This document shows positions 1 through 16,283 of a stretch of DNA of 16,283 nt, piece after piece. Numbering within the stretch: the first letter of the stretch is position 1; each line of letters opens with the position of its first letter. Below the pieces are notes generated by a model. It was not told the DNA's origin, did no database searches, and saw only the letters and a list, made by a program, of their open reading frames with translations. This DNA comes from a virus: UHGV virus genome UHGV-0153204; one strand, 5' to 3'. Position numbers and translations under genes: made by a program.

Positions 1-121
1 CATTTTTGTCGCGCTGGGCTTTGTAGGTAATGGCGTTATCACGGTAATGATTAACCGCCCATGACAGACAGACGATGATGCAGATAACCAGAGCGGAGAT
101 AATCGCGGTTAATCTGTTCAT
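1..121 (-). CDS. Rz: Spanin Rz, N-terminal portion (gene runs off the left edge of the window)
   Basis: Minus-strand translation from ATG at 121..119 gives [39 protein letters not shown]..., closely matching the N-terminus of lambda Rz as I recall it. The ATG overlaps the R stop (ATGA). No stop inside the window. Confidence 0.8.
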
Positions 122-1215: not shown

Positions 1216-2391
1216 ATGGATATAACTTGTTTAGAATGTGGCAATGTTCTTGACGACCCAACTGTAGCTTGCGATAAATGCGGTGCCACGCCTCATGTTG
1301 TAGCGCTGGGCAAACAATCGTACTTTCCTATTGGTGCTGTAACAGCAAATCTTGAAAAAAATGATTCAAGAGCATTTGATTATCGATTAGGTGAAGTTTG
1401 GGATCTAAAAAATGAAGTCACATCTGAATTCATAACCAGAATTGAGAAAAAATTTAGCCGAAAAAACAAATTTCATAACTTCCTAGACTCAGATCACAAC
1501 CCTTCATCCATTCCTACGATCCTAAAAAAATACATTAATAAAAATAATGAATTCATTGATTTATCTAGAGCTATAATAGAGAAGCTTAAACATAATGCTA
1601 ATAACGAATCGAGAGTTGCCCAACTTCAGGGGGGGAGCGTTGTTTTCATCCACTATAAGTCTACCGAACCAGAGGATTTGGGGAAACTTCTAATCGTAAT
1701 GGTTGATAAACAAAGCGCCTATGACTTTGATTCGGATAAGTTGACCCCAACAAGATTAAATCCAATTAATACCGATGCCTTACGGCAGGCTGCGATGTTC
1801 GATTTAACTTTATTCGAAGCCAGTTATCCAGAAAACAAGGGTGACTCATATGTACATTTCTTGCAAGGTAAATCTAAAAGCGATTTTTTCAAAGACTCAT
1901 TAGGTTGCCGACATGATTCGGACAATAAAAGAAGCATTCAGCAATTATTCAGTGCTATAGATATTTTTGCTAGTAAAAACTCACTCGGTCGTGTACTGCG
2001 TGATACTATTGACAATGAAGTTAAATCCTTACTGGAAAAAAAATCAAAAGATAAACACGGAAATAAGTCCGTTAAGATAGAGGATATTTCAAAAATAATT
2101 GACTCATGCCTGACTGATTCACACAAATGTAAGGGAACGTTTGTCGATTTTGTTAATCTTAATGGTTTCCAGATTGACCCTCAATTTGAACCAACTCCTA
2201 AAGCAGCTGAAAGCGCGCTTACAATTGAAGTGGCAGATAACGACAATAATTTTAAGTTGAAAATAATGCGTGGAGCTATTGGAGACGAAAAGTCAAATAA
2301 GCCTGTAATTCTCACTGACAACAAATGCGAAATTGTGATAAAATTGAGTCAGGCAAATTATGATGAACTCAAAAGATATAGAGACAGCTAA
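1216..2391 (+). CDS. Hypothetical protein: N-terminal CxxC...CxxC zinc ribbon plus NdpA/YejK-like nucleoid-associated-protein domain (candidate cassette gene A)
   Basis: 391 aa ORF, visibly AT-rich. N-terminus CLECG...(12 aa)...CDKCG. The central region GGSVVFIHYK...YVHFLQGKSKSDFFKDSLGC resembles the GGFVLFCHY...[23 protein letters not shown] block of E. coli YejK as I recall it. Needs HMM confirmation. Confidence 0.7.
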   Translation: MDITCLECGNVLDDPTVACDKCGATPHVVALGKQSYFPIGAVTANLEKNDSRAFDYRLGEVWDLKNEVTSEFITRIEKKFSRKNKFHNFLDSDHNPSSIPTILKKYINKNNEFIDLSRAIIEKLKHNANNESRVAQLQGGSVVFIHYKSTEPEDLGKLLIVMVDKQSAYDFDSDKLTPTRLNPINTDALRQAAMFDLTLFEASYPENKGDSYVHFLQGKSKSDFFKDSLGCRHDSDNKRSIQQLFSAIDIFASKNSLGRVLRDTIDNEVKSLLEKKSKDKHGNKSVKIEDISKIIDSCLTDSHKCKGTFVDFVNLNGFQIDPQFEPTPKAAESALTIEVADNDNNFKLKIMRGAIGDEKSNKPVILTDNKCEIVIKLSQANYDELKRYRDS

Positions 2392-2393
2392 TA

Positions 2394-3608
2394 ATGACAA
2401 TTGCTGATGACTTATCAAGATTAGCGCAGATTATTAACGGAGCCTCAAGCAGAGTTGAGGGCTACTACACTGTCATAAGTCTTGAAGAAAGCATTGTTAT
2501 TGTAAATAGTTCTGAAATAATTAGACTGTTACAATCTATAGGTTATAAAAAGGCAACAACCTGCATCGAAAATAATGAAATTTGGCTAGATCGCCAAGCT
2601 TCATCTTGGGATGATGCTATAATTTATGAGAATGTTGAGTCTTTTTGGTCTAGAGTAAACACCCAAAACGCTCTTCCGAAAAATTATATCATCGGAACGC
2701 CGTTAATACTCCCTACTTCTAAGAATGAAAGCATCGAAAAAATCCATATTTTCTTTATGTGGAAAGATATCCTTTCATTAATTTCTGATCATCATAACAG
2801 TGACTGCTCTGTCTTATTTTTCACCAATGAAGACAAAAGTTATACAGTCGAACTCACGCATTTTTTACAATATAGCGAGATTAATCGCTTATCGAACTCG
2901 TCTCTTAAATATGAAATTATAAAGGAGCTTCTCGACACAATAAAAATCAATGATTTACACAAAAGCGAGCGCAAGCTCGTTATACGCTCAGCCATAAACG
3001 AAGTATTTAAAGCAAATGGTACGTTCAATTTCTTTGACTTGCTTAACTCTACTGAACTCGTCAGGAAAAAATATGATGAACTATATGAGATTTACACAAA
3101 GAGGTTTTCTGTAAATAAAATTCTTAACGAACTCGATGAGAAAAATCTTGAGTTCACGAGTAAAATTAACGAATTCATATCATCTAATCAGACAAAAGCA
3201 TTGACTATTCCCGGTGCATTAATAGCAGCTGGTGGCTTAGTGAAGGCTAATGAAACAACCGAAGCAATATTGATTATCGCAGGACTTTGGATGATAAAAA
3301 AAGTCAATTACATTTCTATTGAGATATTCAATGAAACATTCGACAACTTACGTTCTCGAGTGGAGTCCGCTTTCGATAAGTATTTAAAGTTTGAAGAAAA
3401 TAAAGAAATCAAAGATAATGCAGATAGTATTAAGAGTAGCATTACAGGTTTGATTGATAAAGCTAAAAAAAGGATGAGAACTGTTAAATATCTCGCATCA
3501 GCCATGTTTTATGGAGGCCTTATTTACGTTGGATATAAACAGTTCCCAGTCTTTTTTGAAAAATCGGCAGTAAATCTATTTTATTTTTTATGCCATACTA
3601 TAAGCTAA
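2394..3608 (+). CDS. Hypothetical protein with predicted C-terminal membrane-spanning segments (candidate cassette gene B)
   Basis: 404 aa ORF starting 2 nt after the gene A stop (likely translationally coupled). AT-rich, Lys/Asn/Ile-rich. Hydrophobic segments ALTIPGALIAAGGLV / AILIIAGLWMI and YLASAMFYGGLIYVGY near the C-terminus. No recognisable catalytic motif by eye. Confidence 0.7.
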   Translation: MTIADDLSRLAQIINGASSRVEGYYTVISLEESIVIVNSSEIIRLLQSIGYKKATTCIENNEIWLDRQASSWDDAIIYENVESFWSRVNTQNALPKNYIIGTPLILPTSKNESIEKIHIFFMWKDILSLISDHHNSDCSVLFFTNEDKSYTVELTHFLQYSEINRLSNSSLKYEIIKELLDTIKINDLHKSERKLVIRSAINEVFKANGTFNFFDLLNSTELVRKKYDELYEIYTKRFSVNKILNELDEKNLEFTSKINEFISSNQTKALTIPGALIAAGGLVKANETTEAILIIAGLWMIKKVNYISIEIFNETFDNLRSRVESAFDKYLKFEENKEIKDNADSIKSSITGLIDKAKKRMRTVKYLASAMFYGGLIYVGYKQFPVFFEKSAVNLFYFLCHTIS

Positions 3609-4958: not shown

Positions 4959-5756
4959 TCAATGAACGGTATCGAGTAGCTTTAACAGCTCAGGGAATCG
5001 GGATTCGAAGAAATGCGGCTGCGTCTCGCGCGGATTTGCGGGACTGGTGATGTTCTTGCCGAACATGCAGCCTTTCGCCGTCAGCGACCAGAATTTTTTG
5101 ATGTTGTTAATCGCGGTACGGCTGTATCGTTCGCGCTGCTCGACGATCCCCAGCTTCACCATCTGGTGATATGCCTGATTAGCTGTCAGGCGGATACCAT
5201 ACTGCTTCAGCAGTGCACTCAGTGACAGCGTGGGGCGGCTTGAGCCATCAGGCGCGTCAGCAGGAGCATCAATGGCATAGCGCGGTGCCAGATTCGGTAA
5301 GCCAACAGCCTCCTGGAGTTTCTGACAGGCTCCAAGCACTGAAGAGTTAGACAGATTTAACTCCCGGCGCATAAAGTCCAGCAGAATCACGCCAGCCTGC
5401 ATCTTGTCAGCAGCCTGTCCGGATAATTTTTCAGGTGCGCTGGTTACCATGTCGAAAGTACGGATCACCTTCAGATGGAATGACGGGCTGATCCACATTG
5501 CATAGGCATACACCAGTTCTTTGCAGACATACGTCCCCTGGTTATTTCCGCCACGAATAACGTTAACTGGCTCTATATTGACCGAGTTGCAAATCTGCAA
5601 CTCGCTTATTAAACGTTCAGTTTGCTCATTGCGGAGCCAGAATGCAGGCTTATGCTTATCCAGAGAACCGGCAGCCCTGTGCAGATCGTTCAGGCTGTAA
5701 CGACCATAAGCATCACGACGAACTTCAATACCATCAATGACCATCAGATTATTCAT
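4959..5756 (-). CDS. KilA-N domain protein (putative antirepressor-like)
   Basis: 265 aa; N-terminal MVIDGIEVRRDAYGRYSLNDLHRAAG...KHKPAFWLRNEQTERLI is a typical KilA-N signature as I recognise it. C-terminal half uncharacterised. Confidence 0.65.
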   Translation of the reverse strand: MNNLMVIDGIEVRRDAYGRYSLNDLHRAAGSLDKHKPAFWLRNEQTERLISELQICNSVNIEPVNVIRGGNNQGTYVCKELVYAYAMWISPSFHLKVIRTFDMVTSAPEKLSGQAADKMQAGVILLDFMRRELNLSNSSVLGACQKLQEAVGLPNLAPRYAIDAPADAPDGSSRPTLSLSALLKQYGIRLTANQAYHQMVKLGIVEQRERYSRTAINNIKKFWSLTAKGCMFGKNITSPANPRETQPHFFESRFPELLKLLDTVH

Positions 5757-11408: not shown

Positions 11409-11439
11409 ACAACCTCCTTTTTTTGATAATCCTTGCACT

Positions 11440-11530
11440 CCTTGGCCACTCGTTCAAACCACATAAAGTTGTTGACAACATTCAAAACCACAACTAAATT
11501 ACAACTTAAAGGTGTTAAAACAACGAACAG
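11440..11530. promoter_or_regulatory. Second operator-like region (OL-like) with consensus-like plus-strand promoter
   Basis: Shares ACATAAAGTTGT and ACAACTT(T/A)(T/A)AGGTGTT blocks with the cro/cI intergenic region. TTGACA (11472..11477), 17-bp spacer, TAAATT (11495..11500) on the plus strand. Also upstream of the minus-strand BRCT gene. Confidence 0.45.
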
Positions 11531-11613
11531 GCAGGACGCCCACGAAGTAGCCCGCCTGGTACGTACGAAGACCGGGATGATTCGTTAGCGGATGATTTCA
11601 GTGGAGAGAATAG

Positions 11614-11922
11614 ATGAATGAGCAGAATTTGAAGCATGTGATCGCATTGTTGCTGGAAGACGCTAAACGTTTGCAGCAGATAGAGCCAAATGCAGGCACT
11701 GAGGCCCGTATTTTGTTAGCAAAACAGGCATTAAAGACTTGCGGGGCGCAAGACCCTGATCGAACCAAGTTCATGAATTTCATGGCTAACACGATCACCC
11801 CCCTGCCATGCAATGGAGAGAGGGTGAGCCGTGTTTATCACGACACAATGGTTAAGGCATTAAGAATCGAGCTTGATGGGCTTAGGCGTAAGATCGTGAT
11901 GAACAAAATCGTTGCCAACTAA
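11614..11922 (+). CDS. Hypothetical early-left protein
   Basis: 102 aa ORF with SD GGAGAG 5 nt upstream; helical-looking composition. First gene downstream of the OL-like promoter. No recognisable family; not similar to lambda N by eye. Confidence 0.45.
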   Translation: MNEQNLKHVIALLLEDAKRLQQIEPNAGTEARILLAKQALKTCGAQDPDRTKFMNFMANTITPLPCNGERVSRVYHDTMVKALRIELDGLRRKIVMNKIVAN

Positions 11923-12203
11923 GGAAGCAGACGGAAGTAAGCATGCGCTTTGTTCAAATTTGCAGACAAATATATTTGCGTCAACACCAGCACTGTTAGC
12001 AATGGAAAAAGTTTGATCAAGGATTTGTTGGCAGTTCATTGTGCTTTTGAGGATATATCCCTCTGGAATCAGTCTGCAGCAGCTATCGTCAGACTCTTTG
12101 ATTGTTTTCTGGTACAGAAAGTTAAGCATTAATTCTTCAAATTTTTTGGTCTGTTCGGCTGTTGCTTCAAACAGACGAACGTGAACATAAAACTGGTTCA
12201 TTA
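11860..12203 (-). CDS. Hypothetical protein (minus strand, overlaps 3' end of preceding plus-strand ORF)
   Basis: Best start ATG at 12203 with SD AAGGAAACC. N-terminal MNQFYVHVRLFEATAEQTKKFEELMLNFLYQK looks protein-like. 63-bp convergent overlap with 11614..11922 means at least one of the two may be mis-called. Confidence 0.4.
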
Positions 12204-12299
12204 GGTTTCCTTGCTGGCTGTGTGAGAACTCCAGCATACCACCGAGCCTGAAGTGGTGAAAAGACAGGCAATAGTTTCATTGCTGTGTGTAGTCTTGGA

Positions 12300-12345
12300 G
12301 GTACCAGCTTGTACCCTTGCTTCCGGCTGGTACCGTCCTTTTTAC
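12300..12345 (+). terminator. Putative intrinsic terminator (plus strand)
   Basis: Perfect 9-bp inverted repeat GGTACCAGC (12300..12308) / GCTGGTACC (12326..12334), 17-nt loop, followed by GTCCTTTTTAC. Confidence 0.4.
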
Positions 12346-12556
12346 AAAACAGAGAAGAGCATCACCGGACGACGAGCTCATAACCCAATCCATCCGGGCG
12401 GCTGCCACCGCAGGTGTTCTTCTCTGTTTTGTGGAGAAACTAACCGCCCCTACGGGGGCATTCATGGAAATGTAATTGACTCAATAATCGCCGGACGGTG
12501 AGGGCTTTCTTTTACCCGAATTCAGCGCGGTGCAGCGCATATACGTGGAGAACAAA

Positions 12557-13093
12557 ATGTCATTTATTACAACTTTTTCTGGGAAGCATTTTTATTATGA
12601 CAGGATAAATAAAGACGACATCGTTATTAACGATATCGCGGTTTCCCTTTCAAATATCTGCCGCTTTGCAGGACACCTTTCACACTTCTATAGCGTCGCC
12701 CAACATGCGGTGCTTTGCAGCATGCTGGTACCGCAGGAATTTGCTTTTGAAGCATTAATGCATGATGCAACAGAAGCGTATTGCCAGGACATCCCCGCAC
12801 CACTGAAACGCCTTCTTCCTGACTATAAACGGATGGAAGAAAAAATAGACGCCGTAATCCGTGAGAAATACGGGTTACCTCAGGCTATGAGCACGCCCGT
12901 GAAATATGCCGATCTCATCATGCTGGCAACCGAACGCCGCGATCTCGGGCTTGATGATGGCTCTTTCTGGCCAGTATTGGAAGGTATCCCGGCAACAGAG
13001 ATGTTCGAAGTTATTCCTCTGGCTCCTGGCCATGCCTACGAGATATTTATGGAACGTTTTAAAGAGCTGCATAAGATACATAAGCAATCCTGA
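12557..13093 (+). CDS. HD-domain phosphohydrolase (YfdR-like)
   Basis: H...HD motif (VAQHAVLC...LMHDATEAY) and size are consistent with the prophage HD-domain 5'-deoxynucleotidase family (CPS-53 YfdR-like). Start at 12557 (SD GGAGAA) preferred over the ORF-track start 12530. Confidence 0.6.
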   Translation: MSFITTFSGKHFYYDRINKDDIVINDIAVSLSNICRFAGHLSHFYSVAQHAVLCSMLVPQEFAFEALMHDATEAYCQDIPAPLKRLLPDYKRMEEKIDAVIREKYGLPQAMSTPVKYADLIMLATERRDLGLDDGSFWPVLEGIPATEMFEVIPLAPGHAYEIFMERFKELHKIHKQS

Positions 13094-13133
13094 CAGCGAA
13101 ATTAACTAGTGAAATAGTTTTGTAGCAAAAGAA

Positions 13134-13394
13134 ATGAGGTTATCAAAAATGCTTCAAATGCTGACACTTGAAGAATGGGCTGCGGAAAAATTTAGGAGTA
13201 ATCCTCCAAGTGTGTCCACATTGCGTCGTTATGCTAAGCAGAATTTATTTTGTCCACCAGCAATGAAACAAGGTCGACTCTGGCGAGTACGTGAGGACGC
13301 AGAGTTAGTTGGGGAATTAGTTACTCCAGTAATCAAGAAAAGTGATTCTATTATTCTGCAAAGGATTTTAAGCAATGGCAGCCAGACCACGTAA
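13134..13394 (+). CDS. xis: Excisionase Xis
   Basis: MLTLEEWAAEKFRS...LRRYAKQNLFCPPAMKQGRLW parallels lambda Xis (MYLTLQEWNARQRR...VRRWVRECRIFPPPVKDGREY). Overlaps the int start as in lambda. True start may be 13149 or 13158 rather than 13134. Confidence 0.8.
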   Translation: MRLSKMLQMLTLEEWAAEKFRSNPPSVSTLRRYAKQNLFCPPAMKQGRLWRVREDAELVGELVTPVIKKSDSIILQRILSNGSQTT

Positions 13395-14502
13395 AAATAA
13401 TGTTTCAGTACCTAACTTGTATCCGCTTTATAGTAGAAAAGTAAATAAAGTCTATTGGCGATATAAGCATCCAGTGACCGGGAAATTTCATTCGTTGGGC
13501 ACAAATGAAGCTGAAGCTATTGCTATTGCCACTGAAGCTAACACTCGTCTGGCTGAGCAAAGAACCCGGCAGATTCTAGCTATCAGTGATAGGATCGCAA
13601 CCAGCAAAGGAAAAGCGATCACAACGTCAACCTGGTTAGATCGTTATCAAGCGATCCAGGATGACAGGCTCAAAAGTGGTGATATAAGACTCAACACCTA
13701 TAAGCAAAAAGCTAAACCAGTATCCTTGCTCAGAGAACGAGCAGGAATGAAGTTGATCTCATCCGTTGATGTTAGAGATATAGCACAATTGCTTGATGAG
13801 TATATTGCAGCTGGACAGCCTAGAATGGCCCAAGTCGTTAGGTCTGTATTGATCGATGTGTTTAAGGAAGCACAGCATTATGGCGAAGTTCCGCCAGGGT
13901 ATAACCCTGCTCTTGCGACGAAGCAACCCAAAAGAAAAATTACCCGTCAACGCCTCAGCCTGGAAGAATGGCAAAAAATATTCGATATAGCAGACGCCAA
14001 TCATCGTTACATGGGAAATGCCATGCTCCTAGCTTTGGTCACTGGGCAGCGTTTGGGAGATATATCCAAAATGAAATTTAGTGATATTTGGGAAGATCAT
14101 CTTCACGTCATTCAGGAAAAGACTGGAAGCAAAATCGCTATCCCTCTTTCTCTTCGCCTCAATGCGATTAACTGGAGTTTACGCGATGTTGTAGCGCGCT
14201 GCCGAGACTATGCGGTTAGCCCATATTTAGTGCATTTTTTCCGTGCAACATCACAGGCAGAACGTGGCGCACAAGTTAAATCCAATACATTGACGATGAA
14301 TTTTAGTAAAGCGAGAGATTTAGCAGGAATTGACTGGGGAGAAGGTTCACCTGCCACATTCCATGAACAAAGGTCTTTATCTGAACGTCTGTACAAAGAA
14401 CAGGGGTTAGATACACAAAAACTACTTGGCCATAAAACACAGCGACAGACAGATCGATACAATGACGACCGAGGCAAAGGATGGAACAAGATAGCGTTGT
14501 AA
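13375..14502 (+). CDS. int: Tyrosine recombinase, lambda-family integrase
   Basis: 375 aa, colinear with lambda Int by eye (PNLY, HSWLDRY, VVTGQRVGD-like LVTGQRLGD, catalytic C-terminal HKTQRQTDRYNDDRGKGWNKIAL versus lambda HKSDTMASQYRDDRGREWDKIEI, including the tyrosine). Confidence 0.93.
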   Translation: MAARPRKNNVSVPNLYPLYSRKVNKVYWRYKHPVTGKFHSLGTNEAEAIAIATEANTRLAEQRTRQILAISDRIATSKGKAITTSTWLDRYQAIQDDRLKSGDIRLNTYKQKAKPVSLLRERAGMKLISSVDVRDIAQLLDEYIAAGQPRMAQVVRSVLIDVFKEAQHYGEVPPGYNPALATKQPKRKITRQRLSLEEWQKIFDIADANHRYMGNAMLLALVTGQRLGDISKMKFSDIWEDHLHVIQEKTGSKIAIPLSLRLNAINWSLRDVVARCRDYAVSPYLVHFFRATSQAERGAQVKSNTLTMNFSKARDLAGIDWGEGSPATFHEQRSLSERLYKEQGLDTQKLLGHKTQRQTDRYNDDRGKGWNKIAL

Positions 14503-14843
14503 AAATTTTAAACGCCTCTACGCCACCGCAAATTTATCACCATACATGAAAAAGAAGCAAACAGTCTGTTTTGAGAAGCAGAAGTTATATTCAATTTCTA
14601 TCCTCTGGTGTTCCCTAATGAAATACCAGCCTCCATTGGCCATTACCAGAATACTGGTATCATGGTAGGAAATGTTCGAAAAGGATTAATGACGAATCGC
14701 ATCAGAGCAGCGGCAAGAACCGCCAGTACTACAGGATGCAGGATGCGGGATGCGGGAGTATCGGCGGTACAAGGTTATCTTTGATCAGTGAACTTCTTTA
14801 AGATTACATCTCTTTTATAGTTTTAAGCAACTATGAAGTGGCT

Positions 14844-15434
14844 TTACTCACCATCATCTAATTCGTTTAAAAATCTGGCAAGAACATCTCCGTGGCACGG
14901 ATAGGGTTTGCAATGGCAACCAAGGATTTTTCCTTTATGTGCTTTCAGCTTTTCTTTGAAATCCTCTCCCCCTTTTAAAAAATTTCTATCAAAGTCATAC
15001 TTAAACTTTCTTATAACTTCATCACGATCACCATCTGCTCCAATCGCATAAGGATTACCCCATAAAGTACCGCGACCGCAATATACATCGAAGTGTTCCC
15101 CCCTGTCTTTATTGGATACAAAAGTAATTTTGTCTTTTATATACCTTACGGGAATTTGTGATGCTAACGTTTCATAAATTGTTGTGAACTCAGGTTTCAA
15201 AGCTGAATCAAAAACAACGGCATGCGTTAAACCAAGATTATAAGGATCTGTAAGAAGGTCAGGATCAAGTTTAAAAATCAAATCAGAAGAAAAATAGTCA
15301 TGTATCAAGTTCTGGTTATCTTCAAAATAAAATACTTTGTATTCACTCGATTCGGAGAAGATACGGGTAAGCTTTCGCTCAAACTTACCCTTTGAAGCAA
15401 AATCAGGATGATACATAACTAGTACTTTCATCAT
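14844..15434 (-). CDS. DUF4326-like domain protein with N-terminal extension
   Basis: C-terminal FDVYCGRGTLWGNPYAIG...GKILGCHCKPYPCHGDVLARFL matches the DUF4326 signature as I recall it (..CGRP..WGNPF...L.C.C.P.pCHGDVL). AT-rich. ATGA-type overlap with the upstream DUF488-like gene. Confidence 0.55.
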   Translation of the reverse strand: MMKVLVMYHPDFASKGKFERKLTRIFSESSEYKVFYFEDNQNLIHDYFSSDLIFKLDPDLLTDPYNLGLTHAVVFDSALKPEFTTIYETLASQIPVRYIKDKITFVSNKDRGEHFDVYCGRGTLWGNPYAIGADGDRDEVIRKFKYDFDRNFLKGGEDFKEKLKAHKGKILGCHCKPYPCHGDVLARFLNELDDGE

Positions 15435-15871
15435 ATTAAATGCTTAACCTCAAAATCTGCATCCCAGTGCTTGTTCAGATATTCTATCACAAGACGACGA
15501 TGACAGTGATGGGGTTTGTGCTCACTACATAACAAGCAACCGTCAGAGATTAAGCTCTTATCAATACGTTCAATATTCCTTTTTTCCATAAGATTCAGAA
15601 AGTTATCTTCGTAAACTTCCCACGAAACATTACCTTTTTTATAAGGGTCGAGTATCTCTTTAGTTGGGGCGAGCTCTGGAACATGGGCGTAATCTACCCC
15701 GCACAACTCACGAAGGAAAAATTCGAGGTCCTTCTTTTTAGCAAAACCAGCAAGTTGCGACACGTTATTTAGCCGGACATCAACTAGGGTTTTGATTGGC
15801 TGCGACTTAATCAAGGTAAAAAATTTTTCAGCAGTTTTTTCAGTAAAGCCAATTGAGTATATCTTCAACAT
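15431..15871 (-). CDS. DUF488-like domain protein
   Basis: 146 aa; MLKIYSIGFTEKTAEKFFTLIK...LVDVRLNNVSQLAGFAKK...LLCSEHKPHHCHRRLVIEYL fits the DUF488 family pattern as recalled. Same operon as the DUF4326-like gene. Confidence 0.55.
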   Translation of the reverse strand: MLKIYSIGFTEKTAEKFFTLIKSQPIKTLVDVRLNNVSQLAGFAKKKDLEFFLRELCGVDYAHVPELAPTKEILDPYKKGNVSWEVYEDNFLNLMEKRNIERIDKSLISDGCLLCSEHKPHHCHRRLVIEYLNKHWDADFEVKHLI

Positions 15872-16240
15872 AGTATGTCTGCTATAAGTTTATAATGGAA
15901 ACCACCAAAAGTATCTAAAGCAAGACTAATGGTGATATAAGCATTCTCATGAATATGTGTACCTAATGGTTTGTTTTCATAATAATCTAACCAATAAATA
16001 TCTGTGATTTTTAAATTGTAAGTAGTGCCGTTATATACAAACTCGCCTCTTAGCTTTAATTTATCGCCCCATTTAGATGCATAGATTGTTAGTTCTCCAA
16101 CATAAATAAAATATAAACTTTCATCAATTTCTTGGGCTTCTTGAGGAGTTACTTGATCGTTGATCCCACCACCAGACTCATTATTATTATCCCACAATGA
16201 ATCTGGGGTGTCGCATAATAAAGATAATGCGGCGTCTGTA
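15865..16240 (-). CDS. Hypothetical protein, 5'-truncated (N-terminus lost at contig end; apparent start is adapter-derived)
   Basis: The ORF as called begins MCIRDS..., encoded by the Nextera mosaic-end sequence at 16241..16259, so the real gene is incomplete at its 5' end. Remaining sequence is AT-rich with no recognisable domain. Confidence 0.4.
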
Positions 16241-16283
16241 CTGTCTCTTATACACATCTGACGCTGCCGACGACTTAATAGGT
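16241..16283. other. Illumina Nextera transposase adapter read-through (non-biological)
   Basis: 16241..16273 is CTGTCTCTTATACACATCTGACGCTGCCGACGA, i.e. the Tn5 mosaic end CTGTCTCTTATACACATCT plus Nextera adapter tail. The following CTTAATAG + GT is consistent with an 8-nt index and the start of the flow-cell primer segment. Confidence 0.93.

Follow-up and report, generated by a model that had tools for sequence, protein, structure and literature searches.

The window, as we call the whole stretch of DNA that was analysed (16,283 nt of the virus genome UHGV-0153204), is mostly prophage. Positions 1 to about 14563 form the lysis-to-integrase arm of an icd-integrating lambdoid prophage that is common in E. 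coli, with 95-99% identity. The genes of this arm are holin, GH24 lysozyme, Rz, Q, RusA, repressors, xisE and intE. Beyond the integrase the GC content is 36%, against 46% for the prophage. This part of the window carries a cassette of three minus-strand genes (14844..16240), the first of which is cut by the contig end, followed by 43 terminal nucleotides. The features of this region are as follows.

14844..15434, minus strand: intact gene with mSLOG and DUF4326 domains, the third gene of the cassette (Pfam PF22565, 4.7e-16; PF14216, 3e-22).
15431..15871, minus strand: intact DUF488 (DUF488-N3a) gene, the second gene of the cassette (Pfam PF04343, 2.9e-25; PF22751, 6e-10; PADLOC PDC-M45C, 8.3e-68).
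15865..16240, minus strand: genuine 3' part of a DuOB (dual OB domain, PF22557) gene, 376 of 663 nt (identity to the E. coli loci L001-L008; Pfam; PADLOC).
16240..16257, minus strand: M-C-I-R-D-S, the false N-terminus given to the listed ORF; the complement of 16255..16257 provides the ATG, and only base 16240 is genomic.
16241..16259, plus strand: Tn5 mosaic end (ME), 19 nt, CTGTCTCTTATACACATCT (exact single match).
16260..16273, plus strand: read-1 (i5-side) Nextera adapter tail, GACGCTGCCGACGA, the reverse complement of TCGTCGGCAGCGTC (exact 33-mer together with the mosaic end; primer sequence in PMC9010798, Table 6).
16274..16281, plus strand: i5 index S518 (CTATTAAG) in reverse complement, CTTAATAG (exact prefix test; PMC9010798, PMC7589761).
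16282..16283, plus strand: GT, with which reverse-complemented P5 (GTGTAGATCTCGG...) begins (prefix test; 2 nt of P5 are weak evidence on their own).

Some features of the prophage arm lie apart from the 3' end. The 5' contig end (1..121) cuts an Rz-type lysis gene on the minus strand, and base 1 lies inside rzpD in strain A42. No adapter suffix was found at this end, and it is genuine, since several complete genomes align from window base 1. The break there is probably repeat-induced, because lambdoid lysis modules are found repeatedly in one genome. Two large genes (391 and 404 aa) at 1216..3608 on the plus strand, located between the lysis module and the Q antiterminator, run opposite to the surrounding late and early genes. 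The pair, annotated in strain A42 as a nucleoid-associated protein and a hypothetical protein, is a candidate moron-like insertion.

The genomic part of the contig ends in ...GGCGTCTGTA and is followed directly by CTGTCTCTTATACACATCTGACGCTGCCGACGACTTAATAGGT, the junction falling between 16240 and 16241. The mosaic end at the start of the tail is the synthetic hyperactive-Tn5 end employed in Nextera tagmentation. It is unique in the window when both strands are searched, and 0 copies are expected by chance. With the following 14 nt it forms the 33-mer CTGTCTCTTATACACATCTGACGCTGCCGACGA, which corresponds, in reverse complement, to the Nextera read-1 transposase adapter, TCGTCGGCAGCGTC + AGATGTGTATAAGAGACAG. 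The exact-match check of 16241..16273 gave a single perfect match of this 33-mer to the Nextera adapter sequence: one copy in the window, on the plus strand, with 0 mismatches. In 200 dinucleotide-preserving shuffles the 33-mer was matched 0 times with 3 mismatches tolerated. A chance origin of the tail is ruled out by these shuffles and by the uniqueness of the match.

The last 10 nt (16274..16283), CTTAATAGGT, are the reverse-complemented S518 index plus GT, and this GT corresponds to the AC that ends P5, read in reverse complement. The published sequence of Nextera XT v2 index primer S518 is AATGATACGGCGACCACCGAGATCTACAC[CTATTAAG]TCGTCGGCAGCGTC (PMC9010798, Table 6), and its index sequence is also given in PMC7589761. 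In a direct prefix test, the reverse complement of the S518 primer plus mosaic end began with exactly the 43 nt of 16241..16283 (43 of 43), so all 43 bases of the tail are synthetic. An earlier note on this DNA had claimed that the last ~43 nt are Nextera read-through and not genome; this proved correct, and every base can be assigned directly, sample index included. The coordinates given there for the tail (16241..16283) and for the affected ORF (15865..16257) were also exact. The tail is the only adapter copy in the window; it is strictly terminal, lies on the plus strand and is directed out of the contig. TruSeq, Nextera i7-side, P5, P7 and phiX start sequences were searched for in the window, and none was present.

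The genuine continuation of the contig was read from E. coli genomes. When 15400..16283 was compared by megablast with 5,426 complete E. coli genomes, a single chromosome was returned, that of isolate SC487 (NZ_LR778149.1). Over window positions 15400..16240 SC487 shows 100% identity, and the alignment stops exactly at 16240. Base by base, the SC487 locus (L001) differs from window positions 13053..16240 by one mismatch in 3,188 nt, at 15360, and it is identical across 15865..16240. In the tail only 6 of 43 bases agree with SC487, where about 11 are expected at random.

Seven further loci (L002-L008) were taken from NCBI assemblies that encode exactly the DUF488 protein of the window. L008 is SC487 again, so that the eight records represent seven E. 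coli assemblies. In all seven of these loci the alignment to the window ends exactly at 16240. Over 15865..16240 identity is 370 to 376 of 376 positions, and in the tail it is 6 of 43. Past 16240 the seven loci share one continuation, TATTCATACTCG... (TATTCATACTCGTC..., TATTCATACTCGTCTACTTTTTCC...). The adapter is absent at the homologous position in all eight records, and identity drops exactly between 16240 and 16241. Both the exact junction and the true continuation are thus observed directly. The junction 37-mer was not found in IMG/VR or in JGI metagenome contigs.

These genomes bear on the question of why the contig stops where it does. The tail could be adapter while the stop at 16240 reflects a true strain difference inside DuOB, such as an insertion, deletion or rearrangement, and the slot between int and icd does vary between strains. 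However, the gene is intact (220 aa) and continues identically in all seven cassette-bearing assemblies, which makes a rearrangement at 16240 unlikely. One of them (L005, GCA_015687555.1) matches the window at 100% identity throughout 11431..16240. Moreover, adapter tails at contig ends are common without structural cause, as seen in IMG/VR and in PMC11536531. We regard a strain difference as quite improbable.

The contig end falls inside a gene, as the earlier note had also held, and the same loci show that this gene is DuOB. In SC487 the intact gene, coding for 220 aa, carries the annotation 'dual OB domain-containing protein'; it is intact at this length in all seven assemblies, from which the true gene length is directly known. 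Of this gene the window retains residues 97-220, the stop codon and, from the Tyr96 codon, the third base; 287 nt (residues 1-96) are missing, together with the promoter region. With the Pfam DuOB profile (PF22557), the intact homologue exceeded the gathering score, with 182.7 bits over profile positions 1-210 of 210, and the window copy scored 91.6 bits over positions 91-210 only, as a 5'-truncated member of the family. The full-length protein matches PADLOC model PDC-M45A (1.7e-53).

The listed minus-strand ORF at 15865..16257 encodes 130 aa (MCIRDSTDAALS...). Its ATG belongs to the mosaic end. The adapter supplies codons 1-5 as well as two bases of codon 6, and 16240 is the last genomic base. 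The further claim that this ORF borrows its start and first six residues from the adapter was therefore borne out: the true protein has 220 aa, and the false ORF joins it at residue 97. No stop codon occurs in the DuOB frame between the ATG and the contig edge (LLSRRQRQMCIRDS...), so a gene caller that permits partial genes would add 14 adapter-derived residues, not 6. Neither the 130-aa false ORF product nor the 138-aa open-to-edge product had an exact match in a large protein collection. A search of species-representative genomes for DuOB relatives with a single protein as query gave 26 pattern matches, 0 of them confirmed, which reflects the reach of one sequence and not absence.

When read 2 of a Nextera library runs through a short insert, the elements follow in the order ME, GACGCTGCCGACGA, reverse-complemented i5 index and GTGTAGATCTCGG.... 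The order of elements in the window tail is exactly this standard one and agrees with the primer table of PMC9010798. We conclude, with a probability of about 98%, that the 43-nt tail is a laboratory and assembly artefact, namely untrimmed Nextera adapter read-through at a contig end. Such a tail is an ordinary assembly artefact with no biological novelty.

The artefact probably arose in the following way. The DNA would have been prepared as a Nextera (Tn5 tagmentation) library with i5 index S518. At least one fragment, produced by a Tn5 cut between positions 16240 and 16241, would have been shorter than the read length. Read 2 would then have run off the insert into the i5-side adapter, giving ME - GACGCTGCCGACGA - reverse-complemented index - GT.... 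Adapter trimming may have been absent or incomplete, and the assembler would have extended the contig end with such a read or reads. Judged from the standard Illumina layout, the tail is most likely derived from untrimmed short-insert read-2 sequence. The skipped trimming is inferred, as is the reason for the stop at 16240, for which low coverage, tangling of the graph at adapter k-mers that are shared, or a structural difference in the source strain are possible candidates. Read inward, the mosaic end gives ATG TGT ATA AGA GAC AG. Its frame happens to be that of the interrupted DuOB gene, and the output of an ORF finder is therefore the 130-aa MCIRDS protein instead of the real one of 220 aa.

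The same 33-mer was then looked for in IMG/VR, and at least 120 contigs (L009-L128) carried it, with 121 copies among the matches listed. All but one of these listed copies (120 of 121) lie within 100 nt of the end to which they point, and the median distance from the contig end is about 12-13.5 nt. The listed copies face outward, on the plus strand at 3' ends and on the minus strand at 5' ends. Various 8-mers follow the adapter among them: that of S518 in 2 contigs and other known-looking indices in the rest. GT comes after the 8-mer in all 86 of the listed copies with enough trailing sequence. In the 120 terminal tails listed, every post-index part is consistent with reverse-complemented P5. 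Tail length among the matches listed is 33-120 nt with a median of 46 nt, and the 43 nt of the window are typical. We considered a fixed assembler k as the cause of the 43-nt length and rejected it, since the wide range of tail lengths speaks against one length fixed by a k-mer.

The false start is equally general. Read inward, every listed copy begins MCIRD[R/S]; 20 of the 121 (17%) open an ORF of at least 60 aa and 12 open one of at least 100 aa, the longest having 859 aa (L048). End location, orientation and false start were thus all observed directly in these contigs.

Many of the listed adapter-capped contigs come from one metagenome (3300045988), and one contig (L025) carries the adapter at both ends, at 12..44 and 14891..14923. 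The only internal copy among the 121 listed is at 2154..2186 of L011 (IMGVR_UViG_3300000510_000121). There 'NN' comes first, then CAC, an 8-nt index (TATCCTCT) and the adapter. The NN together with the adapter points to a scaffold join onto an adapter-capped contig start, so that the two halves may not belong together. It had also been suggested that joins across such points could be chimeric; L011 makes this reasonable by providing one, though nothing is joined in this window.

The generality of the tail also bears on whether a laboratory Tn5-derived transposon, for example in an EZ-Tn5 mutant, had inserted in DuOB with the contig ending just inside it. Transposons of the EZ-Tn5 type end in the same 19-bp mosaic end, which is present at 16241..16259. 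However, the next 24 nt are the read-1 primer tail, the catalogued index S518 and the start of P5, that is, a PCR primer and not the interior of a transposon, and at least 120 unrelated viral contigs are capped in this same way, with other indices. We give such an insertion next to no weight.

The tail matches GenBank records as well. Its terminal 35-38 nt match 26 phage records, whose hosts are Vibrio, Listeria, Acinetobacter, Paenibacillus, Bacillus and Escherichia. The matches cover 34-48 nt, mostly at record ends, and the records have nothing else in common. Unrelated genomes that share only a short piece show the signature of common contamination, not of homology. These 26 matches might suggest a natural origin for the tail, from an IS50/Tn5 end or from true mobile-element or phage DNA common to the matching records, but the phages infect unrelated hosts and share only that short, mostly terminal piece, the natural Tn5 OE and IE differ from the tail at 3 and 4 of 19 positions, and the tail is an exact match to a synthetic primer with its index, so the chance of a natural origin is close to nil. 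Neither natural OE nor natural IE was matched anywhere in the window.

Adapter copies away from record ends are found, for example, in LR595870.1/NC_049386.1 (1296..1329), MK373775.1 (149749..149782) and MK170160.1 (22697..22734). Adapter sequence also lies under annotated CDSs, such as the terminase large subunit of Peduovirus P22H1 and the long tail fibre of vB_EcoM_WFK. The occurrence of such internal copies suggests assembly joins or circular-permutation artefacts across the adapter.

The cassette whose first gene is cut by the contig end is the sole lead of biological interest in this region. The DUF488 gene overlaps the DuOB stop by 7 nt and the mSLOG+DUF4326 gene overlaps the DUF488 stop by 4 nt; the cassette is translationally coupled. 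Intact copies are found at 5445..7128 of L001 and at 3345..5028 of L002-L008. The cassette lies between int, or a remnant of it, and icd in every locus examined. By megablast it was present in 1 of 5,426 complete RefSeq E. coli genomes, and the DUF488 protein was present in 792 blocks of a wider assembly collection.

Among the PADLOC models, the mSLOG+DUF4326 gene gave no match, and the only match to PDC-M45B was a weak one by the DUF488 protein (1.1e-12), with no separate B gene in the cassette. None of the three cassette proteins is covered by an NCBIfam model. DUF4326 is a clade within the rhodanese-phosphatase superfamily, frequently found in fusion with SLOG and with a predicted role in processing the phosphates of ADP-ribose derivatives (PMC9503650). 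A literature search on DuOB, DUF488 and mSLOG returned nothing specific apart from that paper and no experimental work on the cassette. Tentatively, and at rather less than even odds, the cassette might be a working, uncharacterised anti-phage system or a conflict system that processes nucleotides or ADP-ribose, as a variant of PDC-M45 with mSLOG-DUF4326 replacing B.

The cargo between intE and icd differs by strain, as seen from window positions 14503..16240, L129 17487..19542 and L001 5104..8181. In strain A42 the int-icd slot is occupied by a Sll1717-family P-loop ATPase. In the window and in SC487 its cargo is the DuOB cassette, after which SC487 has an integrase remnant and a 204-aa hypothetical protein. 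The slot looks like a variable, possibly defence-related, cargo site.

The adapter finding itself matters for data hygiene only. The contig should be trimmed at 16240, and DuOB annotated as 5'-partial (residues 97-220 of 220) and not as a 130-aa MCIRDS protein. Untrimmed adapter tails create false protein N-termini, for which a start of MCIRD[R/S] is a simple screen. They also create spurious similarity among unrelated records, such as those of Vibrio, Listeria, Acinetobacter and E. coli phages, and they can seed false joins, as illustrated by the scaffolded L011. From the leaked index S518 it can be seen that the library was made with an index of the Nextera XT v2 Set D type.

Like EZ-Tn5-type insertions and natural Tn5/IS50 ends, the window presents a 19-bp Tn5-type terminus abutting host DNA; in contrast to them, that terminus is followed by 24 nt of library primer, index and P5. 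Like GenBank records of Vibrio phages JSF5/JSF6, Escherichia virus Lambda_4C10, ESSI2_ev015, Peduovirus P22H1 and ev207, which carry the same 34-38 nt of Nextera sequence mostly at their termini, the window ends in adapter. In some of those records the adapter is internal, within annotated CDSs and possibly at joins, whereas in the window it is confined to the end. According to a survey of microbial genome databases (Moeller lab, BMC Genomics 2024; PMC11536531), adapters are concentrated about 10 bases from the ends of contigs and are linked to contig breaks, lying forward at ends and in reverse complement at starts. The window and the IMG/VR contigs share this pattern. The survey's account of this pattern concerns the Illumina universal adapter (TruSeq-type), whereas here the adapter is Nextera i5-side with its index, and set beside it the present analysis makes the effect on gene calling explicit in the false MCIRDS start. 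As for the cassette, its closest counterpart is the PADLOC candidate defence system PDC-M45, of which components A (DuOB) and C (DUF488) are strongly matched here. It differs from PDC-M45 in having no convincing B, its third gene being mSLOG+DUF4326.
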